DNA of 63,111 nucleotides, counting the filler. It is 4 parts of 4 records of this genome, joined end to end, with 100 filler letters (N's around TTAATTAATTAA, not from the genome) between each part and the next. Parts side by side here need not be neighbours in the genome. Positions count along the whole stretch, not along the records: positions 23,716 to 37,049 come from DRR723986_7131; 3 more parts are not named here. One strand, given 5' to 3'. This document shows positions 4,938-50,590 of the stretch, piece by piece. Below the pieces are notes generated by a model, which was not told where the DNA came from, did no database searches, and saw only the letters and a list, made by a program, of their open reading frames with translations. The position numbers and the translations under genes are program-made. Each line of letters opens with the position of its first letter. The stretch's first letter is position 1.

Positions 4938-5795
4938 ATGAAACTATGCAATTTTGAAGTGGGTTTGGATAAACCTTTTTTCCTGATCGCTGGCCCATGC
5001 GTGATTGAAAGTGAACAAATGGCCATGGACACGGCTGGCCAGCTCAAGGAAATCTGCGAGTCACTGGGTGTACCTTTTATTTACAAAAGCTCATATGACA
5101 AGGCTAACCGTAGCTCAGGCAAAAGCTTTCGTGGTTTGGGTATGGACAAAGGGCTTGATATTCTGGCCAATGTCAAGAAATCGCTGAATGTCAATGTATT
5201 GACAGACGTCCATGCAATTGAAGAGATTGCTGCTGTGGCGAGTGTGGTGGATGTATTGCAAACCCCTGCGTTTTTGTGTCGTCAAACCGATTTCATTGAG
5301 GCTGTGGCCACTTGTGGCAAGCCAGTGAACATCAAGAAAGGCCAGTTTTTGGCGCCAGGCGACATGGTCAACGTGGTTGACAAGGCCCGAACTGCCGCTA
5401 TTGAAGCCGGCGGTGATGGCAAGAACATCATGGTGTGTGAGCGGGGTGTAAGTTTCGGTTACAACAATCTGGTCTCCGACATGCGCAGTCTGGCCATCAT
5501 GCGCAACACAGGTTGTCCGGTCGTGTTTGATGCGACGCACAGCGTACAGTTGCCGGGCGGGCAGGGCACAGCCAGTGGTGGTCAGCGTGAATTTGTGCCT
5601 GTGCTGGCGCGTGCTGCTGTTGCGGTGGGCGTGGCGGGTCTGTTTATGGAAAGCCATCCTGACCCTTCAAAAGCGATGTCAGATGGCCCCAACGCCTGGC
5701 CTTTGCCCCGCATGAAAGCCTTGCTATCCACTTTGCAAGAACTGGACCGTTTGGTGAAGTCTGGTCCATTGGCCGAAACAGACTTGATGAAATAA
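4938..5795 (+). CDS. kdsA: KDO8P synthase (3-deoxy-8-phosphooctulonate synthase)
   Basis: [23 protein letters not shown] and DATHSVQ motifs. Start trimmed to ATG 4938 behind AGGAGG (ORF track starts 4704). pyrG-kdsA-eno order. Confidence 0.98.
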
Positions 5796-5825
5796 AACAG
5801 GTCGAGTGTTCAAAACAGAATTTAA

Positions 5826-7127
<1,302 letters not shown>

Positions 7128-7145
7128 TCGATATTAATCGAAGGT

Positions 7146-7169
7146 GGCCCCGCAGTGCGGGGCCTTCTT
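7146..7169 (+). terminator. GC-rich hairpin after eno (weak terminator or mRNA-stabilising stem)
   Basis: GGCCCCGCA-G-TGCGGGGCC followed by TTCTT. Confidence 0.5.
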
Positions 7170-7173
7170 GTAT

Positions 7174-7503
7174 ATGAACCCCAGGCTGATTTCACTTGTC
7201 CTTTTTGCCCTGCTGATTTTGCTTCAATACCCACTGTGGTTTGGCAAAGGCGGGATGTTGCGCGTCAGCGACCTCGAAGATCAGCTTGAACAGCAAAAGC
7301 AGGTCAATGAGGCGTTGCGTTTGCGCAATCAACAACTTGAGGGCGATGTACGCAGTTTAAGTGAAGGGGTTGAGGCCATTGAGGAACGTGCCCGAAATGA
7401 TTTCGGCATGATCAAGAAAGATGAAGTGTTTATTCAGTTGATTGAGCCGCGCGGTCAACCCGCAGCCACACAACCTGGTGCAGCTGCAGAAACCTCAAAT
7501 TAA
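7174..7503 (+). CDS. ftsB: Cell division protein FtsB
   Basis: TM helix with QYPLWFGKGG, then a coiled coil and EAIEERARNDFGMIK. Follows eno. Start trimmed to ATG 7174. Confidence 0.95.
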   Translation: MNPRLISLVLFALLILLQYPLWFGKGGMLRVSDLEDQLEQQKQVNEALRLRNQQLEGDVRSLSEGVEAIEERARNDFGMIKKDEVFIQLIEPRGQPAATQPGAAAETSN

Positions 7504-8429
7504 TGCAAGGTGGGTGGCTGGGGGTTTTGTGAGGCGTCCTCATGAGAGGTCTCGGTAAACAATGCCTCGCAATCAGCTCGTGTGAATGAGTAATTGGCGT
7601 TGCAGAAGTCGCACTGAATTTCGACCGTAGGGTTTTCTGACAGGGCTTCGTTCAATTCGGCCTGTCCCAAGGTCACCAGCATTTTCCCCACCTTTTCGCG
7701 TGAACAGGAGCATTCAAAGTGCGCTTGGCGTTCTGCCAGTCCATCCGGGTCCTCCTCCCAGAATAGACGTTTGGCCAATTCATCGGTGTCGGTAGTCAAA
7801 TGCTCCTCAGCCTGCAGCGTATTGATCAAGGCTTTCAGTCGGTCCCAGCCGTCGGCGTCAAACTCTTTGTTTGAAACAACACCGCCATGCTGTGGCATTT
7901 GTTGAAGCATGACGCCTGCAGCAGTGGTGGAGTTTGAATTGAGAATTAGGCGGGTTTCCAATTGTTCGCTGCTGTGCATGTACGCTTCAAGCGAATCGGC
8001 AACGGAGGTACCTGAAAGCGGCACAATGCCTTGATAGGGGGCTTGACCCGGTAGACGGTTACGGGGGTCGAGAATGATTGCGCATATGCCTTTGCCAGTC
8101 GCATTGACCAAATCTTTAAAGCACGCATCCTCGGGGATGTCGGTGCCTTCAAGCAATTTGACAGTGGCACGCAAACCCAGGCGACTATTGCACTCTGCCA
8201 CCAGCAAACGAATGGGTCCGTCGCCCTGGATCTGAATAATCAGCGATCCTTCGAACTTCAGCGACGCTGAAAGCATGGCGCTGGCCGCAACCAGTTCACC
8301 CAATACTCGCTGAACCGGCTTCGGATAATCATTGTTGTTGACCACTTGTTGCCAGGCTTTGGAAAGATGAACCAAGTGCGCTCGGCAACTGGATTGATCA
8401 AAGATCAGTGTTCGTAGTGTGTCGGTCAT
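7500..8429 (-). CDS. hslO: Hsp33 redox-regulated chaperone
   Basis: QIQGDGPIRLLVAE and YQGIVPL motifs, zinc motif CSCS...CDFC. Start trimmed to ATG 8429. Confidence 0.95.
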   Translation of the reverse strand: MTDTLRTLIFDQSSCRAHLVHLSKAWQQVVNNNDYPKPVQRVLGELVAASAMLSASLKFEGSLIIQIQGDGPIRLLVAECNSRLGLRATVKLLEGTDIPEDACFKDLVNATGKGICAIILDPRNRLPGQAPYQGIVPLSGTSVADSLEAYMHSSEQLETRLILNSNSTTAAGVMLQQMPQHGGVVSNKEFDADGWDRLKALINTLQAEEHLTTDTDELAKRLFWEEDPDGLAERQAHFECSCSREKVGKMLVTLGQAELNEALSENPTVEIQCDFCNANYSFTRADCEALFTETSHEDASQNPQPPTLH

Positions 8430-8451
8430 GGATACAAAATAAGGGCAAGAT

Positions 8452-8976
8452 TTAATCGTCAATTCGTTCAAGTGTTTCTTTGAACAGCTTGGCTTTTTGC
8501 ACGTAGAAGGCAGCACCTATCAGGCGGGCCACTTCATCGTCGTTCAGGGTTCGAATCACTTTTCCGGGCGAGCCGACCACCAGCGAACGGTCGGGAATTT
8601 CCTTGCCTTCTGTGATCAAGGCGCCGGCGCCGATGATACAGTTTTTTCCGATCTTTGCGCCGTTCAGTACCACTGAACGAATTCCGATCAAACTGCCTTC
8701 ACCGATAGTGCAGCCGTGCAAACACGCCTGATGTCCAACTGTCACGTTTTTTCCAACCACCATGGGATAGCCAATGTCAGTGTGCAGCACAGCGCCTTCC
8801 TGTACATTGCTTCCCGCCATGATGTGGATTAATTCGTTGTCACCTCGGATCGCTGCGAAATCCCAGACCGACGTGTTCTCATCAAGTTGCACTTTGCCGA
8901 TGATGCTGGCCATTTCAGCCACATACGCGCTGGAGTGGACGGTGGGGGCTTCGCCATTGATTTTGTACTTGGCCAC
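8452..8976 (-). CDS. Gamma carbonic anhydrase family (YrdA/PaaY-like) hexapeptide-repeat protein
   Basis: IRGDNE, SNVQEGAVLHTD and TVGHQACLHGC motifs. GTG start at 8976 behind AGGAG. Confidence 0.92.
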   Translation of the reverse strand: MAKYKINGEAPTVHSSAYVAEMASIIGKVQLDENTSVWDFAAIRGDNELIHIMAGSNVQEGAVLHTDIGYPMVVGKNVTVGHQACLHGCTIGEGSLIGIRSVVLNGAKIGKNCIIGAGALITEGKEIPDRSLVVGSPGKVIRTLNDDEVARLIGAAFYVQKAKLFKETLERIDD

Positions 8977-23615: not shown

Positions 23616-23715
23616 NNNNNNNNNNNNNNNNNNNNNNNNNNNNNNNNNNNNNNNNNNNNTTAATTAATTAANNNNNNNNNNNNNNNNNNNNNNNNNNNNN
23701 NNNNNNNNNNNNNNN
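23616..23715. other. Artificial contig linker (N44-TTAATTAATTAA-N44)
   Basis: 100-nt spacer with stops in all six frames. Gene content changes abruptly across it. Confidence 0.99.
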
Positions 23716-24250
23716 TTGCTTTTTGATTCTTTTGTTAGTTCTTGTGGCTGAATTGTCGCGGCACCGAACGAGAATGTTTCTTGATTTGATTGTCGATACG
23801 GTTGTTTGAAGTGTGAGTGTGGAGAGAGTAAGCGTTTAGCGTGAGTGCTTATTGAATGTCGCTGTAGCGCACTCAACGCCGGGGGATTCTCTTTGTGTGA
23901 ATATAGCGTTGCTTGTCCCACGCAGATGTTAAGTCTATTGAAGTGCTGGTCTGAAACGGCACTGGAGGTCTGATAAGTAGATGGGTGTCTGGTTGTGTGA
24001 TAAGGCGGATTGTTCTAAATAGCTTGTGTGAACTCTCAAAGCAAGAGCCAATTTTTCAACAAGTGTTTTCTGATCTACTGTTGGATGTTAACTCAACGAT
24101 TAACAAAAATATCAAAAAGCCTGAGATGCGAACGGAGTGAGTCAGCTCAAAGCGGTCTGGGGAAGTGAGCGACGATTTGAACTTGGAGGCTGAATTGTAT
24201 CTGTGCTATGATATGTCGAATTTCGATACGATGCACTCGTGTAACTGTTG

Positions 24251-24300
24251 GTAAACAAAGACAGCCGCCAGCTTGACTTACATCAGGCTGGCGGCTGTCT
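24251..24300 (-). terminator. Intrinsic terminator downstream of the RHS gene
   Basis: 18-bp stem AGACAGCCGCCAGCTTGA-cttaca-TCAGGCTGGCGGCTGTCT (one imperfect pair), followed on the minus strand by TTGTTTAC. Confidence 0.75.
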
Positions 24301-24415: not shown

Positions 24416-27400
24416 CTACCGTAGTTCAGCGGGTTGTGGCGCAGTGAAATCTGTTCCATAACCAGCTGGTCCAGTATTGTTGGAGTTAAATAAAGTATTT
24501 GTTAAGACTGCATTGGTTGTTTCAGTCGCTGTGCCGATAGCAGTCATAGAGCCCAAATTCGCCAACGAATGCGAGTTGTGCAGTTTGTTTACTCCTCCCA
24601 TGATTTTGGATTGGGTCATGCTCACAGCGTTAGCGACGTCTGCAGGGTCAGCTGTTCCCATTCGACCAATTACCCTAGGCGCATTGAAGAAATTCTTCAT
24701 AAGGGTATTCTGTACATTCAGGTTGCTTCTGGCAATAGATCCGAGTACGGTATTCGTTAACAATCCACTAAGACCTCCGATCGCTCCCGTGGCCAGCCCT
24801 GGCAAAAATTTGCTGTTGGCTTGATCTGTATTCAGGCGACCTAATGCTTCGCCGACTGACTTATCATAATACCTCACGTCGACATATGTTTGCCCGGCAA
24901 TATCGCCAACTACATTTCCTACTCCTCCCGCAAGTGATGCACCAGCAGCGAATAGGAATGGAGTTGCCGTTCCACCAGATGCGACCATTAGGTCCGTAGC
25001 TCCACCAAGAATAAGTCCAGCTGTACCTCCTTCTACAACTCCTTGCCAATAGTCTCCTCCATTCATTGAGGCCGAAACACCGCCGACTACGGCACCTATC
25101 AATCCACCCAAGAGAGTACCAATGAGTTTACCACCTGGATCTTTTGTTAACATTGGACTATTTAGACCATACTGGTATGGACTCCAGCCTCTATATACTT
25201 CCCACAACGGATCAATACTCGTAAAGCGCCCCAGCTCATCGTCGTACTTACGCACGCCAAAGTCACCCAGATTACTTTCGAAGTCCTTTTCCTTGTCAAT
25301 ATAAGAGAGGCGTTCCGTGCTGGCACCCTGAATAGGTTTGCCAAACGGTTCGTAGTCGACTGCATTCATGTACGCGCCAGTCTGGTCAAGCACCAGGCGT
25401 GTGGAACCGAGGTGGTCTGTGATTTTGTATTCACGGCCAATACTCGGGCGAGTCGTAATGTTATGATGGTCACCAACGCCATGCGACAGATATTCCGTTG
25501 GGTAGAAATAGACTGCGCGTGCTTGCGTTTGAGGACCACCACCGCAGTCCACCTGAGTGGTTTGTGTGCCGTGAAAAACAGCGCGTTGTTTGCCGGTGCC
25601 GTCCAGTTGGTAGTAGACCCAGGGGTGCGCATTGCCACATTCGTCACCTTCCGGTGAGTAGTAGAGGCGTTTTTGCTCACGTTCGCCTGAGGGGCTGTAG
25701 CGATAGCGCCAATCCAAATCACCGCTTGTTGTGGAAGGACAGGTGGGCGCTACAGTATTTGGATCCGTGACCTTGTACTGTTCAAGAAGGCCGTCAAAAC
25801 CATAGATGAAGCCTTCCGTGTCACCCGGAACCCAAACCTGGCCACTTTTGTGCCAGTTTTCGCGTTGCGTAAGTGCGCCGCTGCCATTGTAGCTGTATTT
25901 GTGTCTGTTGTTGGCAAAAGTATATTCACTCACGCGGTTTGGACCAACGGGATCGTTGTATAGTAGCGTTGTCTGTACGCCATCACGCACAAAGTTATGG
26001 CGGTTGCCAAAGGCATCGTAACCATAGCTTTGGGAGCGAGAAATACCTGGATGGTTAAAGTTCCAGTTTGTCAATTCTCTCTGCTCGTTGTAAACATAAG
26101 TTTGTCCGGCCCAGCCCGGTTGCAGGACATTCCACGAGTCCTGTTGATAAATCTGGCCGTTAGGCTGGTAGCGTAGTTCCTGTACGAAGATTGAACCGGT
26201 TACAGCATCACGTGCATGTACCAGAAGGGGCCAGGTACGCTCGTTATAATCATACTGTACACTTACGTCAATTTCCGGATAGTACAAGAAGCTAATCTGC
26301 CCGCGGTTGGTGTAATCATATTTGATGACCGGGTCGTCAGTCGGTGGATTCACAATGATGGGATAGTCCGGGTTTGAAATGCCAAGGCCAAATGTATTGG
26401 CGGCCAGGAATTCCCAAACCTTGTCCATGCGGCCATTGTGATCGTAACCGTACCAGTTGCTGTGCTGTCGCGTCGGCGCGGCGCTCGTTACGGCAATGAC
26501 TTTGTTCATGGAATTGTAGCTGTAGTAGACAGCGTCAAAACCGAGGTTGTCGGTATAACGAATCAGGGCTTCGAGGCGGCCACGTTCATCGTAGCTGTGC
26601 ACTTCGTAGTGGAAGGCTTCACCGCCGTGCTGGCGATAAGCAATTGCGGCCTGCTTGCCCTTCAGATTGCGAACCACGCCCGTCGGAGCCAAAGCGTCCC
26701 ATTGTGCGGCAGTGGGGAATGCGCCCCAAACAACACCAATCGACTGTGGCAATTCATCATAATGGAAGGCTTTGCGGACGTACTCGGGGTAGGTCCAGAC
26801 GTCCTCAAAGTCATGTGCGTTAGCCGCCGGCCCGTAGTTGCGATCGTAGTAGGCAAGTGGGTGTTTAACATACGCTGAAGGCGGAACTACGTTGCCTGGC
26901 AGGCCGCCAACACCGGCGGGCGTACAGGAGTAGTATTCAACTTCGCTTACGTTAAAAACTGCCGGAACTGGACGTGCCGGTGTTGCCGGATTCCAGATCG
27001 TTGAGTTGACCGTGAGCGGATCGGTCGGATTGTTGTTGTTTAAGCCGTGTGGGTTAAGAAAATCCGTCCAACGTGTAACTACAATAGCAGAGGCAAGCGC
27101 ATCAGCGCTACCTTTGCCGCCGAAGTTAATGCCTTGACCCTCTGGTCCGCCGCCTTCACCGCCGCCGCCGGGACCAGTCGGCGCAAATACTGCTTCACCG
27201 ATCAGAATCGGACGATTGAGGTCATCATACTGGTTAAATGTTAAGCGGTCATTGTCGGCCTGTTCCTGTGTCTGTGAAAATCGAACATTGCCGAGGTTGT
27301 CATAGGCATACGAGACCACACCAAGATCAGCCTGACGTTTGTATTTCACTTGACCGGCTTCGTTGTAACAGTAGCGTGTTTCATGATCGTCAGGGTCTAC

Positions 27401-30400
27401 ATACGTGCCGGGGTGTGATACTGTTAAAGTGCGTCCCAGTTGATCAAATTCGTATTCGGTGACCTCGTTCATACCACCAGACTCGGAACTATAAATTTCA
27501 CGCTTTAGGCGACCAAATGCATCAAAGTACTGCTCGGTGACCACGCCGATTTCATCTGTGCTGCGTGTAACTGTGCAGAAACCGAAATAGTCAGCATCGT
27601 TGAGGTTGGGGTCTATCTGACTAGGTCTTCCGACTTCAAACTCTTGTGAAGTATTGGAAGCGTCGGGGTTGAGCACATGAACTGGCCGCCCCTGGGCGTC
27701 GTAGCTTGTCGTGGTTGCAAAGCCCTCCTGATCAGTTATTAAACTGGTCTGACCGAGACCGGTATAGCCAAAAGTTGAACTAACGAATGTCGGTGAATTG
27801 TTCGGGTCGCCAATAGTTTGTTCCGCTGTCATTACACGTCTATCGACACCAAAGATGTTGCGACTTTGAGTGTAGCGTGAAAAACCAACTGTCGGTACGG
27901 ACCAGTCATCCTCTGTGTGTTCAATGTCATCGACCTTGGCCAGTACCGTACTGGACAGCTCCGGCAAATGATCAACGTAGCTGTAGTTTAACGTGAAGTC
28001 ATTGCGTGAGCTGAGGTGTTTAAGGTCGCCGGTCAACACCAGGCGCGGCCAGGAATCCTGCGCGTCATTGAAGAACTCAACCGACGATCCGAGCGTGTGG
28101 TTTTTAACACGAAATTCTACGTGGCCGCCGGCCAGTGAACTTAGATCATTAACAATTGAGTTGAGATCAAGAATGAATGCTTCCTGATTGCCTGTATCGG
28201 TGCTGCCATAATAATTAAATAAGTAGGTTTCGCTTAACAAGTTGTTTTCCTGGCCGAGGGCATCGATGTGCACCACGTCAAAAGTCAGGAAAATATCATG
28301 CCCTTGGATTGACTGCATTTCGAGCCGCAAGTGCAAGTCACTGAGAGAGACTGCGCTTTGTAATAGATCCAGGGCGTCGGGATAGTAGCTTACAATCGCC
28401 TGGTATTCGCGCTCGGTGTCGAACGGAAACTTAACATTGCAGTCTATCGGAACCTGTGTCTGGTCTGAACCACCCTTCTTTTTAGTTCCGGAACTGCTGA
28501 TTGTGCAGGTACAGCTTGAAGGACAGGGGGGCATTTCTGTCCAGGGCCGCGCAGCAATCAGGTGATCGCGTTTCTCTGCGTTTGCAAGGTCTTCCGTCCA
28601 CCACTTCGAGTTATTATCCTGGATCGATCCGCTGCCTCCCCAATACAGAAATTCTGTTGTGCGCGAATACTTGGAACGGCCCAGCAGGTCTATGTTAAGT
28701 GTTCCAGTGAAGTCGTCGCTGTATAGCTGGTCGGACGGGAAGTCAAACGGCAACCATGCAGTTTTTAGGCGGCCAATTTTGTCGTACTCAGTTTGAGAGT
28801 AAGCACCGTTGGCATCCATCGTACCTGATGGTTGATCCAGGAATGTGCGTTCGTACAGAGTCTCAAGATACTCTGTTGTAATCCCAGCACCCGGCTGATA
28901 CTTACGCACTTCGGCCTGATCGGCCAGTGAGCCCTCATGCATGGGCAGTTTTCCGCGCAGTTTGCGTGTGCTGGTCTGGTCGTTGTTGTCCAGCAGGTTC
29001 GCTTCCGGCAGGTTAAACGTCGTGTAATTGCTATTCAGGATTTCGCTGTAGTCGTAGTGGGTATGTGAAATAGCGTCTACAGCATTTTTAACACTCGTCG
29101 GCGAGTTAACAGCGTATATTGAACCATAGGCGTATTCGGCTGCCAGGATCTCGTTGCCGCCCTCTTGAATGACAAATTGTTTCAAAGGCGCGCCGCGTAC
29201 CTGCTCGAATTCACCAGTCGATCCCGAGATTTGGAATACCGTCGCGTATTCTGTGCGATTCCCCTGTAAAACCATGCTGCTGGCCGGGTCCAGCGTTTTG
29301 CTGCTCAAAACAAGGCCATGCATGTACGGTGAACACAGTTCCGCAGTATGATTGGTTTCTACAAAAACTGGGATATCGAAATAACTTTCGTAGTCATGTG
29401 CTTCACCGGTTTCTTGCAGCCGAAACCATTCTTCCAAGGCCAGATTTTTGGACCATCTGCGCGCAGTCCACGGAATGTTGTACTCCGCCGTCGGCAGGTG
29501 TTCATAAACCGTCTCGTTTGAAATAAAGGGTGTGCCATCGTCAGGCCGGTTGGTCGTTTGTGTCGTTTTGGCGATCCCCAGGCCGAAGAGACTTTGCATA
29601 TTTGGCGTTATTGGGTCGTTGCCATAGTCCCGAACGTAGACACTCTCGTATTCATACGTTACGTTGGAAGTGGGAATCATGGTGACTCCCGACTCATCAA
29701 AGTACTCGCTGTTTTTCTGGCCGGTGCTGGTTGTTTTGCTGACTGGGACGCGCTGGTATTCCGTCGCGGTATTGGGGTCGTTATCGACTGCCGCAAGGCT
29801 ATTATAGACCGTATGTTCTATTGTGCGTGTTAAACCAGCATCGCGCCTAACGGTATTCAGCCTTGTAAAACTAACTTCATCTAGTAGACCGTTAACATAA
29901 TCATTGTCATAGCTGTCGCGATCGTAGAAATACAGTGTCCGGTTGCTCTTGCCGGTAATCTCGTCCGTTATTGTGTGTCCTACGACCCACTTAGTTTCGT
30001 TCGGAATGTGGCAGGTTGTGCCGAATGGCTCAGTTGGATCTTCGATGAAGACCGAACCGTAGCAGTATTCATATTCGTCGGTGGTCTGCAGGCCAACACT
30101 TGCATCAACACCTTTGTACTTTTTCAGAAATGCGACGACATTACTTGCGTGATAGCGTTGATGGTCGACGGTCTGCTCGGGCTCACGTCCTCCCGTATAG
30201 TTTGAACTCAGGAGCATGGACTTGTTGCCTCTATATGTTAACTCCTGATAGGTCTGACCGCTTTGCACCGATAGCAGGCGATAGTTCTTGAGTGTCATTT
30301 CGATCGGTTCACTGATACTCGCCGTTGCTTTGGGCACACCCCAGTTGCGATAGATACGAGTGTAGTCATCATAGGTGAAGTTGACAAAGCGGCCCTCGGG

Positions 30401-31678
30401 GTCTTCGACCGAGCTTACAAATGCCTGAAATGATTTGTAGTCTCCAAGAGTCTGAGCGCCAGCTTGGGTATAGGTGTCAGCGGGGAATTCCAGGTCACCC
30501 AGTTCACCTGTGCCATAGGCCTTCCACCGAATGTTAAATGTGCGGCCCAAAGCCTCAATGCTCATTCCCGAGCCATAGTAACTGAATCTGTGGCCTTCAA
30601 AAGACTCCACTGCCGCGCGACCTAGTTTAAGTGAAGGGCCATGACCAATATCGCGCGTGTAGTTGAACTCTGTTAATACTCCGGTGCTGCCTTTAATGCG
30701 CACCAGGTAAAAAACCGTCGGTGCCGCAAATGGCTGCTTCACTCCACCGATAATTGCAGCCCAAAGCGAATTGTCGGCACCAAAGGGCACGACCATTTCC
30801 TGAAATTCATATTCCAGGCCATCGCCGGGGTAATAGTAGACTGTACGCGGTGCAAAATAATAGTCGTCTGCATCAACGGCGGAGGCATGATTTCCATTCT
30901 TGAAGTACCAGTGTTCACTGTTTTCCCGAGCCTTTGTCCATTCTGTCTCATTGACTTCTACGCGCGCATAACCATTGGCATTGACGGCGTTCTCGTAATA
31001 GTGGCCGGTGTACAAGGCTTCCTTTTTAAACAGGTCGTTATAGCCATTGAAATGATCGCGAGTGGTGCCATTGCGCAGCTCGAGCAGGCTGCCGTCGGCG
31101 CGCATCAGGTGGATGACATCCTGGTCAACCGGGTTGTTAATCTGCTCCATATTGTCCATACGGTTGCAGACTTCATATCCCTTGATCAGCCAGTTGAAGT
31201 GATCGTCATTGAAATCTTGTTCAGAAGTGTTACTGAAAATTCCATCTCGGCTTCGGAAGTCTGTCGCTGCATGCAGCGCCTGCACAGCAAAACCGTTAAC
31301 ACCAACAATCCAGGTTGGCCGGTTTTGTGTAGCTTCCTTCCACTGGCCGCCGGCTTGATCATATTCGAGATAGGAAGTGTATTGCACTCCACCGTTGTAG
31401 CTCAGTGAAGTACTGATCGGATAACCATCAATCGTAAAACTTGAGATGGGGTAGACGTAGGATACCGCTCCGCTGGCATTGTTAACTGCCAGGTTGCCGT
31501 CCAGACTGAGAGAGCTACTTTTCAGGTAACCGCCTTCGTCGTGCATGTCCAGTACTCCCTCCAGAATTGAAGGAGCATCCTGTGCCTTTGCCATCGGCGA
31601 AACAGCCGTAGACAGCACAAGCAGCGCCAAAAAACAGCGCAAAATTGATTTATGAGACATAGACATAGTATTCTCCAC
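24416..31678 (-). CDS. Sec-exported RHS/YD-repeat protein with RHS-associated core and Gly-rich C-terminal extension (2420 aa)
   Basis: Signal peptide ending AKA|Q. Many YD repeats (YDKIGRL, YDAQGRP, YDNLGNVRF, YDDLNRP, YDERGRL). Core TDHLGSTR...DYEPFG...RKYDDELGRFTSIDPL...SPYQYGLNSPMLTKDPGG. Confidence 0.93.
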   Translation of the reverse strand: MENTMSMSHKSILRCFLALLVLSTAVSPMAKAQDAPSILEGVLDMHDEGGYLKSSSLSLDGNLAVNNASGAVSYVYPISSFTIDGYPISTSLSYNGGVQYTSYLEYDQAGGQWKEATQNRPTWIVGVNGFAVQALHAATDFRSRDGIFSNTSEQDFNDDHFNWLIKGYEVCNRMDNMEQINNPVDQDVIHLMRADGSLLELRNGTTRDHFNGYNDLFKKEALYTGHYYENAVNANGYARVEVNETEWTKARENSEHWYFKNGNHASAVDADDYYFAPRTVYYYPGDGLEYEFQEMVVPFGADNSLWAAIIGGVKQPFAAPTVFYLVRIKGSTGVLTEFNYTRDIGHGPSLKLGRAAVESFEGHRFSYYGSGMSIEALGRTFNIRWKAYGTGELGDLEFPADTYTQAGAQTLGDYKSFQAFVSSVEDPEGRFVNFTYDDYTRIYRNWGVPKATASISEPIEMTLKNYRLLSVQSGQTYQELTYRGNKSMLLSSNYTGGREPEQTVDHQRYHASNVVAFLKKYKGVDASVGLQTTDEYEYCYGSVFIEDPTEPFGTTCHIPNETKWVVGHTITDEITGKSNRTLYFYDRDSYDNDYVNGLLDEVSFTRLNTVRRDAGLTRTIEHTVYNSLAAVDNDPNTATEYQRVPVSKTTSTGQKNSEYFDESGVTMIPTSNVTYEYESVYVRDYGNDPITPNMQSLFGLGIAKTTQTTNRPDDGTPFISNETVYEHLPTAEYNIPWTARRWSKNLALEEWFRLQETGEAHDYESYFDIPVFVETNHTAELCSPYMHGLVLSSKTLDPASSMVLQGNRTEYATVFQISGSTGEFEQVRGAPLKQFVIQEGGNEILAAEYAYGSIYAVNSPTSVKNAVDAISHTHYDYSEILNSNYTTFNLPEANLLDNNDQTSTRKLRGKLPMHEGSLADQAEVRKYQPGAGITTEYLETLYERTFLDQPSGTMDANGAYSQTEYDKIGRLKTAWLPFDFPSDQLYSDDFTGTLNIDLLGRSKYSRTTEFLYWGGSGSIQDNNSKWWTEDLANAEKRDHLIAARPWTEMPPCPSSCTCTISSSGTKKKGGSDQTQVPIDCNVKFPFDTEREYQAIVSYYPDALDLLQSAVSLSDLHLRLEMQSIQGHDIFLTFDVVHIDALGQENNLLSETYLFNYYGSTDTGNQEAFILDLNSIVNDLSSLAGGHVEFRVKNHTLGSSVEFFNDAQDSWPRLVLTGDLKHLSSRNDFTLNYSYVDHLPELSSTVLAKVDDIEHTEDDWSVPTVGFSRYTQSRNIFGVDRRVMTAEQTIGDPNNSPTFVSSTFGYTGLGQTSLITDQEGFATTTSYDAQGRPVHVLNPDASNTSQEFEVGRPSQIDPNLNDADYFGFCTVTRSTDEIGVVTEQYFDAFGRLKREIYSSESGGMNEVTEYEFDQLGRTLTVSHPGTYVDPDDHETRYCYNEAGQVKYKRQADLGVVSYAYDNLGNVRFSQTQEQADNDRLTFNQYDDLNRPILIGEAVFAPTGPGGGGEGGGPEGQGINFGGKGSADALASAIVVTRWTDFLNPHGLNNNNPTDPLTVNSTIWNPATPARPVPAVFNVSEVEYYSCTPAGVGGLPGNVVPPSAYVKHPLAYYDRNYGPAANAHDFEDVWTYPEYVRKAFHYDELPQSIGVVWGAFPTAAQWDALAPTGVVRNLKGKQAAIAYRQHGGEAFHYEVHSYDERGRLEALIRYTDNLGFDAVYYSYNSMNKVIAVTSAAPTRQHSNWYGYDHNGRMDKVWEFLAANTFGLGISNPDYPIIVNPPTDDPVIKYDYTNRGQISFLYYPEIDVSVQYDYNERTWPLLVHARDAVTGSIFVQELRYQPNGQIYQQDSWNVLQPGWAGQTYVYNEQRELTNWNFNHPGISRSQSYGYDAFGNRHNFVRDGVQTTLLYNDPVGPNRVSEYTFANNRHKYSYNGSGALTQRENWHKSGQVWVPGDTEGFIYGFDGLLEQYKVTDPNTVAPTCPSTTSGDLDWRYRYSPSGEREQKRLYYSPEGDECGNAHPWVYYQLDGTGKQRAVFHGTQTTQVDCGGGPQTQARAVYFYPTEYLSHGVGDHHNITTRPSIGREYKITDHLGSTRLVLDQTGAYMNAVDYEPFGKPIQGASTERLSYIDKEKDFESNLGDFGVRKYDDELGRFTSIDPLWEVYRGWSPYQYGLNSPMLTKDPGGKLIGTLLGGLIGAVVGGVSASMNGGDYWQGVVEGGTAGLILGGATDLMVASGGTATPFLFAAGASLAGGVGNVVGDIAGQTYVDVRYYDKSVGEALGRLNTDQANSKFLPGLATGAIGGLSGLLTNTVLGSIARSNLNVQNTLMKNFFNAPRVIGRMGTADPADVANAVSMTQSKIMGGVNKLHNSHSLANLGSMTAIGTATETTNAVLTNTLFNSNNTGPAGYGTDFTAPQPAELR

Positions 31679-31749
31679 GAATTTCGTGTAGTTCTTTTTG
31701 ATTTTATGTTAAATAATGGGTCGTGTTAAACGGAGTGAATTCCCGCGTT

Positions 31750-33930
31750 CTAGCGTAGGATCACCACCGGGTATGCCCCGATAAAGTGGCCTTCCGAGTG
31801 CAACTTGGCGACGTAATAACCGGCGGACATGCCACTTAAGTTAAACGCTTGCATAAACTCGCCCGACTGGTCGACATTGATCTCACGGCTCTCAAGGATG
31901 CGGCCATCACTGGCTGCAAGTTCAATGGTGTAGATTCCAGCTGGAATTTTCTGTGCCTCGATCTTAGTCTCACCGCCTGCAGGATTTGGGTACACCCGCA
32001 CGACCGGGATGGCTGTGACATCCTCAGATTCCTCAACGGCCGTTATAACTGGTGGCGGTGGAATCGTAGGCGGATCATCAAGTTTAAAGTCTACTTGTTG
32101 GACGCGGTAAGAATTCTTACCCGTAATGTCGCGTACTGCCGGGTCGGTTAAGTCAAAACCGGTTCTGAAATCCATAGCATAAAACAGCTCGGTTTGTATC
32201 GTTGGGCTAATACCGGCCAGGTTCCAGGTCTCGACCGTCATGAACTCTTGTGCAAAGATAGTTAACACGCGGCCAGTCTCAACTGGACTTGCGCCGCTGT
32301 TATCAGTTCCGGAAATTGTGAACACCAGGTCGAGGCTTTCATCATCATGAGTGCCGTCGTTAAGTTGCAGCATTGAAAATGATACCTGTAGATTTTCCCA
32401 GACCGGGTACTCAATGTATGTTTCACAGTGGTAGTACGGATCACTGTCACCCACAGGATTGCAGCCGCTGTAATTCCATATCACTTTGTAGGGGATGTAT
32501 TTCCCAAGATTGTCACACCAGCGGCCAATCAGCTCGCCCTGGAAGACGCTGCTGGAGGCATTCGGAATTGTATAGAGTGCGCCCTTAAACAAGGCTACGT
32601 CCTGTCGGTCGGGTAGTGTTGTCAAATCGCAGGGAAATGTCGCCAACAGCTCGGGCTTCAAATTGTATAAATCGTTTTCGTACACAGCACCTTTGCTCAG
32701 GTTAAATCGTGCGCCCGAAAAGAGGCGTCCGTTGCCCAAGGCAACATCACGTCCAAATTCATTGGAGCTTGAACCATCACTGGCTGTTAATTTATTCTCC
32801 TCGGTCCATGTGCTATTCTCGTAATGAAAAACGTAGGCCGAACCAGAGTTGGTACCATTGTCGTTATCCGTCGGCGCACCAATAAAGGCGACACCGGCGT
32901 CCAGTGCCACACCGAACCCGAGCTTGTCGCCCGCGGCACCATCTGAGGCCAAAAATATGTGCTCCTCGGTCCAACTTGTGCCGTTGTAGCGGTAGGCATA
33001 CGCACCGCCCGATTTACTACCATTGTCGTCCTTACGCGGAGCGCCCACGAGTGCCAGACCGTCCTCTATTCCAACGCTAAACCCGTACTCGTCGCCCGCC
33101 GCGGCATCGGAGGCAGTCAACTTCTGTTCAAAGACCCAGGCACTCTGATTGTAACGGTATATGTAGGCCGAGCCTTCGTTGCTGCCTGAGAGATCATCAA
33201 GGCGGGCACCGATTATCGCGAGGTCACCACGCACATCTACATCATAGCCGAACCAGTCGTAGTGGCCCGCATCGGAGGCCGTCAGCCATTGGTTTTGTGC
33301 CCATGTGCTACGAGATTCATCCCATTCAAAAACATATGCGGAACCGGCGTTTTGTTCAACATGGCTATCCTGAAAAGCACCGATGAAAATCGTTTCGCCG
33401 CTAATTGACAGAGCATGACCAAATTCATCGCCGGCGCCGGGGTTATCGGCTGTTAACTTAGCCTCCTGGACCCAGCTTTGACCGTCAAAGCGAAAGACAT
33501 AAGCCGAGCCGGCGTCGGTGGCATTGTCGTCATCCTGATGCGCCCCGACTACGGCTATATTACCGTCAATTGCAACCGCGCGCCCAAATTCATCATCCGC
33601 ACCGGGGTCACTTGGCAGAAGTTTTTGCTCCTCTTGCCAGGTTGTTCCGTCCCAACGGTAGATATAGGCTGAACCAGAGGCATTCAGGCCGTTGTCATTA
33701 TCATTACTAGCACCAACAATTGCAACAGTACCATCTGTGTCCACTACGCGACCGAACTGGTCATTTGCAGCCCCGTCACTGGCGGTTATTTTTATCTCTG
33801 CGGCTTCGGCGGAAGTCCATGGTACAGCTGCCACAGCTAAGGCTACCACCCCTGGTAGCAGCTTAGCCAAACACGCCGATTTTAATCTCAATAATAAATG
33901 CATTTCAAAAGGCTCCATGTATGGATACAT
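31750..33930 (-). CDS. FG-GAP seven-bladed beta-propeller protein with unknown middle domain and T9SS type-A C-terminal sorting domain
   Basis: Signal peptide (AEA|A), seven KLTASDxxxxDxFG...GA...GSAY repeats, a Pro-rich linker, then VYPNP...DGRIL...LSGMSAGYYVAKL. The start could be 33930, 33918 or 33903. Confidence 0.9.
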   Translation of the reverse strand: MYPYMEPFEMHLLLRLKSACLAKLLPGVVALAVAAVPWTSAEAAEIKITASDGAANDQFGRVVDTDGTVAIVGASNDNDNGLNASGSAYIYRWDGTTWQEEQKLLPSDPGADDEFGRAVAIDGNIAVVGAHQDDDNATDAGSAYVFRFDGQSWVQEAKLTADNPGAGDEFGHALSISGETIFIGAFQDSHVEQNAGSAYVFEWDESRSTWAQNQWLTASDAGHYDWFGYDVDVRGDLAIIGARLDDLSGSNEGSAYIYRYNQSAWVFEQKLTASDAAAGDEYGFSVGIEDGLALVGAPRKDDNGSKSGGAYAYRYNGTSWTEEHIFLASDGAAGDKLGFGVALDAGVAFIGAPTDNDNGTNSGSAYVFHYENSTWTEENKLTASDGSSSNEFGRDVALGNGRLFSGARFNLSKGAVYENDLYNLKPELLATFPCDLTTLPDRQDVALFKGALYTIPNASSSVFQGELIGRWCDNLGKYIPYKVIWNYSGCNPVGDSDPYYHCETYIEYPVWENLQVSFSMLQLNDGTHDDESLDLVFTISGTDNSGASPVETGRVLTIFAQEFMTVETWNLAGISPTIQTELFYAMDFRTGFDLTDPAVRDITGKNSYRVQQVDFKLDDPPTIPPPPVITAVEESEDVTAIPVVRVYPNPAGGETKIEAQKIPAGIYTIELAASDGRILESREINVDQSGEFMQAFNLSGMSAGYYVAKLHSEGHFIGAYPVVILR
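32677..33798 (-). repeat. Seven FG-GAP (integrin-alpha-like) protein repeats of about 55 aa
   Basis: Repeats begin EIKITASD, EQKLLPSD, EAKLTADN, NQWLTASD, EQKLTASD, EHIFLASD and ENKLTASD. Confidence 0.9.
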
Positions 33931-35183: not shown

Positions 35184-36722
35184 ATGAGCTCAACGGAAGA
35201 ACTTTACCAACTCATTCAAACGATGTCCAGAGCCGAAATACGCAATTTTCGCCAGGTCGTAGGCAGTAACACCAAAGATGGTCAAAGTAATTACCTGAAA
35301 CTATTTGACCTTATCCGTCGCCACGGTGATCAGGGAGAAGAACTCATACGGAAAAAGCTGCGCAAAGAGAAATTTGTTGAGCACCTGGCTACCACACGCT
35401 ATCAACTGAGTAGTCTACTGTTGCAAAGTCTATGCCGCTATAATTCCGCTAAAGACCCACTATTTGAGCTGCAGGAAGGCATTCAAAGTGTACGTTTATT
35501 ATTCGACCGCGGGCTTTGGGAATTCGGCGGACGTTTACTGAAAAAGGTGCGCCGTAAAGCCGAGATGTATGACTATCACTATGAACAAATCGAAATATTC
35601 AGATTAGAACGATTGGAATTGATGCGTTTGCAAACTCAGGGAATGGAACAGACACTGACTGAACATCTTGATAAAGAAAAGGCCGTCGTCCAAAAGTTAA
35701 CATTGGAGAGGGCTTACGCCGATCTGAGTTATCGGATGAATATTCTGGTAGGCAAGCAGATGTCAAGCAAAGATGGGCATACCTTGGAAAAAGCCAGAAG
35801 TATCATGTCCAGTCCTCTATTACGGAATAAGGAACAAGCCCAGACTTTTTTATGCAAGATGGTGTTTCTTAACACGCACACACAGTATTCCATTTTTACC
35901 GGGGACAAAGACAATGCGTACGAGTATATGTTTCAGCTTAAGCGCCTATGGGAAACCGAACCCCATCGGATCACAGTAGCTCCGGGTAGATATAAAACCT
36001 GCCTCACCAATTTTATGAGCATGTGTGTGACGAGCAGGCGTTACACTGAAGTGATGCCGGCTGTTAACGCTCTCAAAGCTCTTCCATCATTGTCAGCTTC
36101 AGATGAGATTAAGACGTTTCTGCATGTATCCAGTATCGAATTGATCTACCGACTTAACACTTCGCACTTTAAAGGTGGCGTAAGCTTAATCGATGAGATA
36201 GAAGAGGGTCTTAAAAAATATTCGGGTAAAATGGATGATGGCAAGGTGATGGTTCTGCTCCACAACAGTACTGTCTTTTTGTTTCTGAAAGGTGACTTTG
36301 CGCGCACGGCGGTTTGGATCGAGAAAATATTATTAAGCAAAAAAACTGACATCTTTAAGGGGCCAATCGAGCTGGCGCGTTTGCTTTTGCCCATTGTACA
36401 ATTTGAACTGGAAAATGATAGTCTTGTTGAACCTCTGATTCGCTCCGTGCAACGCTATTTACAACGCCATGAGCTTCTTAGTGATTTTTACTCGGTTTTC
36501 CTGGCCGGCCTTAACAAACTCGCAGCCACTGTTCAATCAGAAAGGACCTCCGATCTTTACCGCAGCTTGGACAAACAATTGCGTGTGATCAATCAGGAGC
36601 AACCGCCGCCGCCGCTAGAGTTCCAAAGCAATATCCTGTTGTGGCTCAAAAGTAGAATTGAGCAAACGCCGATTAACGAACTGTACTTGCGCAAAATAAG
36701 CAATAGTGATTCGACCCTGTAA
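35184..36722 (+). CDS. Uncharacterised 512-aa all-helical (TPR-like) cytoplasmic protein of a Bacteroidota-type family
   Basis: AGGAGG RBS and no signal peptide. N-terminus LYQLIQTMSRAEIRNF...NYLKLFDLI, followed by amphipathic helical repeats. Confidence 0.8.
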   Translation: MSSTEELYQLIQTMSRAEIRNFRQVVGSNTKDGQSNYLKLFDLIRRHGDQGEELIRKKLRKEKFVEHLATTRYQLSSLLLQSLCRYNSAKDPLFELQEGIQSVRLLFDRGLWEFGGRLLKKVRRKAEMYDYHYEQIEIFRLERLELMRLQTQGMEQTLTEHLDKEKAVVQKLTLERAYADLSYRMNILVGKQMSSKDGHTLEKARSIMSSPLLRNKEQAQTFLCKMVFLNTHTQYSIFTGDKDNAYEYMFQLKRLWETEPHRITVAPGRYKTCLTNFMSMCVTSRRYTEVMPAVNALKALPSLSASDEIKTFLHVSSIELIYRLNTSHFKGGVSLIDEIEEGLKKYSGKMDDGKVMVLLHNSTVFLFLKGDFARTAVWIEKILLSKKTDIFKGPIELARLLLPIVQFELENDSLVEPLIRSVQRYLQRHELLSDFYSVFLAGLNKLAATVQSERTSDLYRSLDKQLRVINQEQPPPPLEFQSNILLWLKSRIEQTPINELYLRKISNSDSTL

Positions 36723-37049: not shown

Positions 37050-37149
37050 NNNNNNNNNNNNNNNNNNNNNNNNNNNNNNNNNNNNNNNNNNNNTTAATTA
37101 ATTAANNNNNNNNNNNNNNNNNNNNNNNNNNNNNNNNNNNNNNNNNNNN
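37050..37149. other. Artificial contig linker
   Basis: N44-TTAATTAATTAA-N44. Confidence 0.99.
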
Positions 37150-37195
37150 CCCCGGCGTGACAGGCCGGTACTCTAACCATCTGAGCTACAACCGC
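37150..37195 (-). tRNA. tRNA-Asp(GTC), 5' part only (truncated at contig end)
   Basis: Reverse complement GCGGTTGTAGCTCAGATGGTTAGAGTACCGGCCTGTCACGCCGGGG: acceptor 5' strand, D-arm, and anticodon stem CCGGC/GCCGG with loop CT-GTC-AC. Confidence 0.92.
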
Positions 37196-50488: not shown

Positions 50489-50588
50489 NNNNNNNNNNNN
50501 NNNNNNNNNNNNNNNNNNNNNNNNNNNNNNNNTTAATTAATTAANNNNNNNNNNNNNNNNNNNNNNNNNNNNNNNNNNNNNNNNNNNN
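50489..50588. other. Artificial contig linker
   Basis: N44-TTAATTAATTAA-N44. Confidence 0.99.
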
Positions 50589-50590
50589 CT

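Follow-up and report, generated by a model that had tools for sequence, protein, structure and literature searches.

Results

Two co-oriented genes lie on the minus strand, separated by a spacer of 71 nt (31679..31749, from ORF coordinates and translations). The upstream one, the partner or 'adaptor' gene (31750..33930), encodes 726 aa, and the downstream one (24416..31678) encodes an RHS polymorphic toxin of 2420 aa with a GTG start, identified by its translation and family matches. This two-gene arrangement, described in an earlier note on the same DNA, is confirmed in both coordinates and order. Both proteins begin with a basic and then a hydrophobic stretch ending in AxA, as read from the translations, in agreement with the signal peptides previously proposed for each. 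A terminator-like hairpin with 18-nt arms and a 6-nt loop, which the terminator scan does not list, lies 116 nt past the RHS stop (24259..24300, minus strand), and no immunity gene was seen in the 700 nt left before the contig end. The window, that is, the whole stretch of 63,111 nucleotides analysed, is a pseudo-molecule of four contigs glued via N-runs around TTAATTAATTAA. Both genes sit on the 13.3-kb contig B (23717-37050), which is flanked by artificial joints at its low end (23616..23716; N-run, TTAATTAATTAA, N-run) and at its high end (37051..37150).

By ORF, translation, Pfam and NCBIfam, the partner consists of a leader, seven FG-GAP_2 repeats, an FG-GAP-like middle module, a Pro-rich linker and a T9SS type-A sorting domain. 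The repeats (~aa 45-410; 32701..33798, minus strand) match PF14312 in seven stretches with an E of 3e-109, which bears out the seven-bladed propeller that had been reported. The propeller is accessory, since it occurs only in the window copy and in two copies of the Kapaibacterium MAG G002 (L013 and L044), and only three of 51 partner genes are long enough to hold it, all others encoding 260-481 aa. The 'integrin-like adhesion module' of the earlier note is therefore not what is conserved. What defines the family is the middle module (aa 448-612; 32095..32589, minus strand), in which alignments A2 and A4 reveal two D-x-x-x-D loops and an invariant Trp, and which is all-beta in the structure model. 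It had been called an unknown domain of ~200 aa; alignments and profile searches make it an FG-GAP-like module of ~165 aa. A profile search against the PDB gave weak matches only, with integrin alpha chains in 16 of 16 (E 0.2-1). Of the 150 top-ranking matches to the A4 profile (out of 7189), ~105 are short proteins of 177-436 aa, and none is a fused partner-RHS protein; the profile also matches giant FG-GAP repeat proteins, in which it finds 7-27 stretches. One full-length orthologue (P0093) shares 46% identity over 689 aligned positions. What the partners have in common is thus a short FG-GAP-like module together with the sorting domain, to which few of them add the seven-blade propeller.

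By sequence, the window copy has a marginal sorting domain (aa 646-726; 31753..31995, minus strand): the 27.7 bits of Por_Secre_tail (PF18962) over aa 646-714 are just above the cut-off of 27, and TIGR04183 stays below threshold at 21.4 against 23. Nevertheless, relatives and the structure model confirm the type-A domain that had been assigned. PF18962 is found at E <= 0.01 in 29 of 34 partner homologues, 17 of them above the cut-off. In the model, where this domain has a pLDDT of ~95, the best VIA-align match of residues 232-315 is the sorting domain of mirolase (8qb1; Z 11.4, rmsd 1.8, 77 aligned), followed by PorU (Z 10.9), PorZ (10.6) and NucA chain 8glk_D (10.2); generic Ig and FN3 domains score equally well, at ~Z 10.

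The RHS protein starts with a leader reaching to ~aa 32 (...AKA followed by QD; 31583..31678, minus strand; read from the translation), and a comparable N-terminal hydrophobic run is present in 31 of 35 N-termini of the family, as judged by a rough rule and not by a predictor. The shell spans ~aa 55-2108 (25355..31516, minus strand). In a structure model of aa 1-520 (pLDDT 81, pTM 0.82), residues 55-520 match the Rhs effectors Tse15 (8uxt; Z 14.5, rmsd 3.2, 225 aligned), RhsA (13.1) and Tse5 (12.9), as well as teneurin (12.1); unrelated structures reach Z 4.7 at most. Residues 55-520 are thus predicted to fold as RHS shell, and the idea of an unknown docking domain at the N-terminus is not upheld. 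Both RHS_repeat (at aa 1305-1339) and YD_repeat match the protein, and we infer that the stretch between the modelled part and the first of these (aa 520-1300) is also shell. The Rhs-associated core (aa 2109-2183; 25130..25354, minus strand) scores 46.6 bits with TIGR03696 against a cut-off of 32.5, and a DPGGK motif (aa 2180-2184) straddles its boundary with the tail, after which relatives diverge; an orthologue (P0123) shares 46% identity across 2199 aligned positions and has a different tail. The shell followed by a variable tail, as read earlier, therefore stands. No sorting domain, PAAR, VgrG, SpvB or TcdB family was detected in the RHS protein at E <= 0.01 with Pfam and NCBIfam, so that the absence of a T9SS domain, PAAR and VgrG holds as well. 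In none of the RHS proteins are there FG-GAP-like blades for the partner to complete.

The tail of the window protein (aa 2184-2420; 24419..25129, minus strand) is Gly/Ala-rich and carries small-xxx-small zipper motifs at a density of 6.2 per 100 residues, compared with 1.0 elsewhere in the protein. Gly-zipper_YMGG matches at an E of only 0.026, and no relatives of this tail were found. Judged from its motifs, it is glycine-zipper-like and probably membrane-active, a putative payload. The tails of related RHS proteins match Tox-REase-9, AHH, NlpC/P60-CHAP, Toxin-JAB1, YkuD and Ntox33, and carry precomputed annotations of PF00545, PF15545 and PF15526. These family assignments show the tails to be polymorphic and, as predicted nucleases and peptidoglycan enzymes, putatively antibacterial. 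A sorting domain was found neither in 29 RHS tails (E <= 0.001) nor in the window RHS protein (P0002).

We examined the pairing in genomes of the class to which G002 belongs, using 36 loci with an RHS protein of the same N-terminal family (L013 and L044-L078). Two were set aside for having less than 320 nt upstream, and a partner was scored if it preceded the RHS gene in the same orientation by no more than 700 nt. It was directly upstream in 32 of the 34 testable loci. Even in an adverse sample of 15 loci chosen because no partner was listed beside the RHS gene, 12 of 13 testable ones have it. The two exceptions among the 34 contain inserted genes, a MutH-like gene plus a methylase fragment in one (L062) and IS21-type IstA/IstB in the other (L078). 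Conversely, for 16 partner loci without a listed RHS gene, three of which lack downstream room, an RHS N-terminus follows directly in 12 of 13. The neighbourhood comparison suggested in the earlier note thus strongly favours a conserved upstream sorting-domain protein in both directions, and the pairing is near-obligate. Where no gene intervenes, partner and RHS are -32 to 178 nt apart in relatives, with three exceptions at 444-519 nt. When all ORFs of 57 loci were clustered, no family other than partner and RHS exceeded five loci. The two proteins also diverge together (Mantel r 0.675, matched by 0 of 2000 permutations), as is expected of any jointly inherited unit. Of 401 genomes sampled across the phylum, 12 have a strong partner match, and each of these is also part of the class sample. 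Apart from one weak partner match in 400 genomes of the class of G001, the genome nearest to the window, relatives of both genes were seen, among sampled genomes, only in the class of G002.

SprA is above cut-off in all six cassette genomes tested, and G002 has at least 150 PF18962 matches. The GspD secretin was found in none of five cassette genomes, whereas the control detected it in 6 of 14 genomes. The cassette therefore resides in genomes with a T9SS and without a detectable secretin. The host of the window copy is a separate matter, because the artificial joining of four contigs makes the neighbours in the window uninformative about it. It is conceivable, and to our mind improbable, that the cassette is non-functional or non-native in this assembly, being either a foreign contig in a mixed assembly or a recent transfer into a proteobacterium without a T9SS. 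The other contigs look proteobacterial; contig A matches G001 at 99-100%, and contigs B, C and D are absent from G001. That genome lacks SprA, any PF18962 match and a partner homologue, while the positive control for SprA and PF18962 worked in G002. In tetranucleotide composition, the correlation of contig B with contigs A (0.75) and D (0.73) is about as high as that between its two halves (0.76). However, both genes are intact and long, and their taxonomic distribution speaks against such an origin. Moreover, if the assembly were mixed, the native host of the contig would be an unseen Bacteroidota-like organism, and the best explanation would be unaffected.

Discussion

That dozens of relatives retain this pairing points to a role of the partner in getting the toxin out of the cell. 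We consider it about an even bet that the cassette is a lineage-specific two-gene polymorphic toxin of Kapaibacterium-like Bacteroidota, in which the sorting domain of the partner brings the RHS protein across or onto the outer membrane. Both products would be exported by Sec and reach the periplasm: the partner with its ~165-aa module, linker and sorting domain (plus the propeller in the window copy), and the RHS protein (~270 kDa), which is shell almost all the way between leader and Rhs core and ends in a swappable toxic tail. The FG-GAP-like module might bind the shell, possibly as a cap, comparable to the propeller in Tc toxins. The sorting domain would then engage the T9SS, so that the toxin crosses the outer membrane, is tethered at the surface, or both, and the tail would be freed into a competitor upon contact. 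Such piggy-back export is what we infer, and the interpretation in the earlier note is, as a whole, partly supported.

No T9SS cargo is known to travel on a sorting domain that another protein provides in trans, and a folded cocoon of TcB-TcC size may exceed the width of the SprA channel. The latter point would also fit a different explanation, which we regard as possible if somewhat unlikely, namely that the partner is itself the T9SS cargo, serving as surface adhesin, in target recognition or as cocoon cap, and joins the RHS protein only outside the cell. For its exit the toxin would then rely on outer-membrane vesicles, on lysis, on a so far unknown translocon, or on a cryptic T9SS signal within the RHS protein itself. 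Pairing and co-divergence are compatible with any functional link between the two proteins, FG-GAP modules are characteristic of adhesins, and the additional propeller in three copies resembles a binding module. Against this, no alternative export route is evident, GspD having been found in none of the five cassette genomes, no gene of the cassette beyond the pair is conserved, and a small module plus a sorting domain is little for an adhesin.

It is very improbable that delivery of the RHS protein relies on a T6SS or on its being the BC component of a Tc toxin, with the upstream gene unrelated to delivery. The shell fold does match T6SS Rhs effectors, there are weaker matches to Tc BC proteins (5kis_A, Z 6.2; 6sue and 4o9x by Foldseek), and the total shell length is presumably close to that of TcB plus TcC. 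However, T6SS effectors load from the cytoplasm, and the export-like leaders of the family argue against this route. The PAAR, VgrG, SpvB and TcdB families are not detected at E <= 0.01, TcA-like, VgrG and chaperone genes are not conserved nearby, and the upstream partner is retained throughout nearly all loci.

Returning to export through the partner, the proposed system shares the shell fold (Z 11.5-14.5), Rhs core and swappable C-terminal toxin with T6SS Rhs effectors (RhsA 7q97, Tse15 8uxt, Tse5 8cp6 and RhsP 8h8a). These are coupled to PAAR or VgrG, often with a chaperone, and have no Sec leader, whereas the window protein has a leader, an about twofold longer shell and a sorting-domain partner. 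The large cocoon with a self-contained tail recalls the Tc BC cocoon (TcdB2-TccC3; YenB/RHS2 5kis). An FG-GAP-like propeller is part of the Tc cocoon, and the TcdB_toxin_midN family overlaps FG-GAP in P0208. However, the Tc propeller lies within TcB and docks on TcA, while here a protein of its own, equipped with a T9SS sorting domain, carries the FG-GAP-like module, and there is no TcA-like gene near the window cassette or conserved nearby. Export of T9SS type-B cargo depends on a PorP/SprF-like protein from a neighbouring gene; there the cargo itself has the sorting domain and its partner is an outer-membrane protein, whereas here the cargo lacks the domain and the partner has it.

The closest precedents come from Bacteroidota. 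In the parts of Steele and Moran 2021 (PMC8125069) available to us, most Apibacter rhs genes adjoin genes for type-A sorting-domain proteins, a T9SS link is inferred and a role in antagonism is considered possible. As here, these RHS proteins lack PAAR; SpvB and TcdB domains are described at their N-termini, neither of which was detected in the window protein. Those parts of the paper define no partner family, partner module or pairing counts, and the neighbour sets were compared by description. The middle module was seen, among sampled genomes, only in the class of G002. As far as we could consult it, Jana et al. 2020 (Jana, Salomon and Bosis; PMC7073777) proposed T9SS export for TANFOR toxins without a sorting domain, which likewise have a Sec leader and polymorphic C-terminal domains and lie near T9SS substrates. 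They differ in having no RHS shell, and the large SprB, Fn3 or PKD proteins in their vicinity were identified by enrichment in a range of ten genes to each side, whereas the RHS genes have a dedicated small partner immediately upstream; an NCBIfam scan of the window RHS protein gave no TANFOR match, the TANFOR model possibly being outside that library. Of the earlier claim of an RHS delivery route distinct from T6SS and Tc toxins, the separation from the T6SS is retained in view of the leaders; the idea itself is partly in print in the portions consulted (PMC8125069, PMC7073777). T9SS-linked RHS delivery is thus not wholly new as an idea, given the Apibacter rhs genes and the TANFOR toxins.

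A two-gene cassette on a contig of its own

The window is made of four contigs glued at three joints (23616-23716, 37051-37150 and 50490-50589), each consisting of an N-run, TTAATTAATTAA and a second N-run, and synteny across these joints is meaningless. The cassette is carried by contig B (23717-37050, 13.3 kb) and comprises two co-oriented minus-strand genes 71 nt apart. The upstream gene (31750-33930) encodes the partner, a 726-aa protein with an N-terminal Sec leader, as read from the sequence, seven FG-GAP_2 repeats (PF14312, E 3e-109), a stretch without family match, and a Por_Secre_tail domain at aa 646-714 (PF18962, 27.7 bits, just reaching the cut-off of 27; TIGR04183 scores 21.4, under its cut-off of 23). 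The downstream gene (24416-31678) encodes the RHS protein, P0002, of 2420 aa, with a leader, RHS and YD repeats (PF05593, E 6.7e-7; TIGR01643), an Rhs-associated core at aa 2109-2183 (TIGR03696, 46.6 bits vs a cut-off of 32.5) and a 237-aa tail; no sorting domain of type A or B, PAAR or VgrG was found in it at E <= 0.01. Given the gene order and the family matches of both proteins, the earlier note had described correctly the anatomy of the partner and an RHS protein devoid of sorting domain, PAAR and VgrG.

Besides the cassette, contig B holds only a 512-aa helical ORF without family match (35184-36722, plus strand), and no T9SS marker was found on it. Between this ORF and the partner gene lie 1.25 kb of apparently non-coding DNA of lower GC content. 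Contig A, which carries a BamC-type lipoprotein gene, is 99-100% identical to G001, the nearest genome. Because the contigs are separate, contigs B, C and D were not found in G001, and a composition comparison does not place contig B, the neighbours in the window are uninformative about the host of the cassette. In G001, neither SprA, nor a PF18962 match, nor a partner homologue was found by searches that succeed on a positive control, and contig D is matched by the aconitase genes of G001 at only ~65%. The assembly of the window may combine several organisms. Contigs C and D together encode aconitases A and B, a DEAD helicase and QueG, for which G001 offers matches of ~65-70% or none. The region at 39027-47098 on contig C, with an MttB-family methyltransferase, two dimethylglycine-oxidase-type genes (DAO + GCV_T), an aminotransferase and a LysR regulator, has the look of an ordinary cluster for methylated-amine catabolism.

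An RHS shell with a variable tail

The N-terminus of the RHS protein, which has no family match, is further shell. A model of aa 1-520 (pLDDT 81, pTM 0.82) matches Rhs effectors at Z 9.6-14.5, far above a background of unrelated structures at Z 4.7 or less; the matches include Tse15 (8uxt; Z 14.5, rmsd 3.2, 225 aligned), RhsA (Z 13.1) and Tse5 (Z 12.9), and Teneurin follows at Z 12.1. According to this model, the shell begins ~25 residues past the leader, with no separate delivery domain predicted ahead of it, and we infer that it continues up to the core at aa 2109. With this extent the shell would be about as long as TcB and TcC combined.

The core is followed by the motif DPGGK in P0002 and mostly by DPxGL or DPxGM in relatives, ahead of the tail. 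Tails vary: those of 29 relatives match Tox-REase-9, AHH, NlpC/P60-CHAP, Toxin-JAB1, YkuD, Ntox33 or no known family, and none contains a sorting domain at E <= 0.001. The orthologue in the Kapaibacterium MAG, P0123, is 46% identical to P0002 over 2199 aligned positions and ends in a different tail. Repeats and shell fold, core with DPxG motif, and varied tails together make P0002 a member of the RHS/YD polymorphic toxins. Its own tail is probably a membrane-active payload, as it is Gly/Ala-rich, with small-xxx-small motifs enriched ~six-fold and a sub-threshold Gly-zipper match (E 0.026). Relatives of this tail were not found among longer proteins, which is weak evidence, and in the Atlas it falls only into unnamed clusters of low recognition. 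The last 700 nt of the contig hold no same-strand ORF longer than 60 aa other than a frame entering the N-run, and no immunity gene is visible there. Fragments of RHS C-termini were seen 3' of full-length RHS genes in L052 (3711-5438), L063 (14179-14724) and L086 (1-459), and look like the orphan tail modules of other rhs loci.

Conservation of the pairing

The earlier note had proposed a neighbourhood analysis of RHS homologues for a conserved upstream sorting-domain protein, and its expectation was borne out. We called ORFs in 56 further loci (L044-L099) and ran an iterated partner profile and RHS queries on them. The loci form three sets: 20 with both matches listed on one contig, 20 with an RHS match and no listed partner, which constitute an adverse sample, and 16 with a partner match and no listed RHS. 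In the first set the pair is side by side in 18 loci, the exceptions being L062 and L063, where the matches are 1.2-5.5 kb apart. An RHS protein of the N-terminal family was found in 36 loci (L013 and L044-L078), two of which have less than 320 nt upstream; in 32 of the 34 testable loci a partner lies upstream on the same strand, at most 700 nt from the RHS gene. Even within the adverse set, the partner is beside the RHS gene in 12/13. The converse holds as well, since an RHS N-terminus follows directly downstream of the partner in 12 of 13 testable loci of the third set (the exception is L089; three of the 16 have no room downstream). With such counts in both directions, chance adjacency of the pair can be ruled out. 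Among the counted pairs is that of the Kapaibacterium MAG, where a 2381-aa RHS gene starts downstream after a gap of 84 nt.

Both cassettes in which the pair is broken hold inserted genes. In L062 the pair is separated (5775-8819) by opposite-strand genes for a MutH-like nuclease, an unknown protein and part of a C-5 methylase, and in L078 an IS21-type IstA-like gene and IstB (121-2548) stand directly upstream of the RHS gene, followed by the contig end. When non-nested ORFs of 57 loci were clustered, only the partner and RHS families occurred in more than five loci. Several genomes carry three to five or more cassettes each. Distances between partners correlate with those between RHS N-termini (Mantel r 0.675, a value matched in 0 of 2000 permutations), which shows that the two are inherited as a unit, not that they bind.

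A Cys-rich family of ~200 aa with a leader sits between the partner and RHS genes in five cassettes (L062 4708-5343, L067 6144-6758, L070 4980-5579, L073 8649-9260 and L077 4389-5072); the single copy scanned, that of L062, gave no match in Pfam. A more distant RHS subfamily of 2122-2188 aa, weakly alike over about the first 200 residues, was encountered in L079-L083, where phmmer gives no N-terminal match and no partner gene was found. Three of these loci (L080, L081 and L083) share a conserved gene of ~228 aa 3' of the RHS gene, and L083 has a 445-aa ORF 1.8 kb upstream of it that matches the sorting-domain part of the partner profile only.

The conserved core of the partner

A homologue search with the entire partner sequence was swamped by proteins with FG-GAP_2 propellers, among which P0093 alone spans the rest of the partner (46% identity, 689 aligned positions); it was the sole full-length relative in the word-indexed search. 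P0093 comes from a MAG titled Candidatus Kapaibacterium sp. (locus L013), a taxon placed in Bacteroidota by the NCBI taxonomy. Most partners are much shorter: 48 of the 51 partner genes seen encode 260-481 aa, and the seven FG-GAP_2 repeats occur only in the window copy and the two copies of the Kapaibacterium MAG, the propeller's absence from partners of the third set being judged by length alone. The propeller described by the earlier note is therefore present in the window copy, but it is not a conserved part of the partner, since only three of 51 genes have it. What is conserved in the alignment is a leader, a module of ~165 aa and the sorting domain, the latter two joined by a Pro-rich linker.

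The sorting domain is of type A, as in T9SS cargo. Of 34 partner homologues, 29 match PF18962 at E <= 0.01, and in 17 of these the score exceeds the cut-off. A model of the partner has a mean pLDDT of 82, rising to ~95 across the last 85 residues, and its best structural match is the sorting domain of mirolase (8qb1; Z 11.4, rmsd 1.8, 77 aligned), followed by T9SS sorting domains of PorU, PorZ and NucA (chain 8glk_D); generic Ig-like domains come within ~1 Z of these matches. Leaders, which were judged by reading and a crude rule and not by a dedicated predictor, are present in 27 of 29 full-length short partner homologues and in 31 of 35 RHS N-termini.

The middle module (aa 448-612 of the partner) contains two D-x-x-x-D loops and an invariant Trp in the alignments. 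Its profile had 7189 matches at E <= 0.001 among 1.84 billion representatives, 157 of them at E <= 1e-30. Of the 150 best matches, about 105 are single stretches in proteins of 177-436 aa, that is, short partners; the remaining 45 fall in giant proteins, each matched in 7-27 stretches, and all four giants scanned are FG-GAP (PF01839) repeat proteins. All 16 matches in a PDB profile search are integrin alpha chains, with weak E values of 0.2-1. Pfam calls no FG-GAP in the module of the window partner, FG-GAP_3 matches weakly in two of 34 homologues, and fold searches with the partner model were filled by matches to the sorting domain. These sequence patterns suggest that the module comprises two to three FG-GAP-like blades. 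No such blades were found within the RHS proteins at E < 0.1.

Distribution and secretion systems

A search of 5.8 billion proteins with the first 1220 residues of the RHS protein retrieved 20, whose precomputed toxin families differ among tails; their named sources are MAGs of Bacteroidota or the FCB group, except for one Promethearchaeota. In a 401-genome sample of the class to which the Kapaibacterium MAG belongs, 55 genomes have an RHS N-terminal match (E <= 1e-5), and 22 contain strong partner matches, at least 47 in all at E <= 2e-18, no more than five candidates per genome having been scored; genome G369 enters only these two tallies. In a phylum sample of 401 genomes, 12 have partner matches at E <= 1e-15, each of them a genome that the class sample contains as well, and two further genomes have weak matches. 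The class of G001 yielded a match in one of 400 genomes, which is weak and lies inside a 3373-aa ORF.

SprA was over the cut-off in all six cassette genomes tested, these being genomes of relatives, and the Kapaibacterium MAG alone has at least 150 sorting-domain matches. GspD was found in none of five cassette genomes (the control was positive in 6 of 14 named genomes). With leaders on the RHS proteins, the natural reading is a two-step route via the periplasm, in which the T9SS is the sole recognised exit across the outer membrane.

A sorting signal that may act for two

We consider it an even chance that the FG-GAP-like module of the partner docks onto the RHS shell while the partner's sorting domain engages the T9SS, whereby the toxin would be exported, held at the surface, or both. 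A more specific version, which is rather improbable, is that the signal acts in trans: the module of two to three blades would bind or cap the 270-kDa RHS cocoon in the periplasm, and the partner's sorting domain would take it through the translocon or assemble it there. The cocoon would then be the first hitchhiker cargo of the T9SS, and the route the third for RHS delivery beside T6SS and Tc. Several points count against export borne by the partner. No fused partner-RHS form is present in the best 150 of the 7189 module matches, we know of no precedent for a sorting domain acting in trans, and a folded cocoon may exceed the width of SprA. A complex prediction for RHS aa 33-520 with the module, which scored 0.00 in a run in which alignments were unused and the partner fold was uncertain, weighs on neither side. 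The main alternative, less likely than export borne by the partner, is that the partner is exported alone and meets the toxin only outside the cell, the toxin leaving by another route; no exit other than the T9SS was recognised in the cassette genomes.

Many large toxins of Bacteroidota have a Sec leader and no T9SS sorting domain, and their way across the outer membrane has been in question since the TANFOR report of 2020. The cassette represents a clean minimal case, in which two near-obligately paired genes divide the roles, the small protein bearing the export tag and the large one the payload. As tag and payload reside on separate paired proteins, the question of export becomes directly testable. 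Should the tag prove to act in trans, it would no longer hold that each T9SS cargo bears a sorting domain of its own; the T9SS would also take part in interbacterial killing, and large folded cargo could be exported by means of a compact handle.

Comparison with known systems

The cassette differs from T6SS Rhs effectors, as P0002 has a leader and contains no PAAR or VgrG, and no such gene is conserved nearby. Nor does it resemble Tc BC components beyond the generic shell fold, the only feature they have in common: no SpvB or TcdB-mid Pfam family was detected at E <= 0.01, and there is no TcA-like neighbour. As regards the N-terminal domain of TANFOR toxins, an NCBIfam scan of P0002, with a library that may lack a TANFOR model, lists Rhs_assc_core and YD_repeat only. 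Searches of the literature on the T9SS with Rhs or polymorphic toxins returned no experiment on T9SS export of RHS or TANFOR proteins. In a study of Apibacter, rhs genes are linked to genes for proteins with type-A sorting domains (PMC8125069), and the TANFOR report proposes T9SS export for toxins without a sorting domain (PMC7073777). The kind of system to which the cassette belongs is thus already in print, still as a hypothetical one. What is new here is a defined, dedicated partner family with a recognisable module, a near-obligate pairing counted in both directions, an RHS protein predicted to be shell from end to end, and the restricted lineage in which the cassette occurs.
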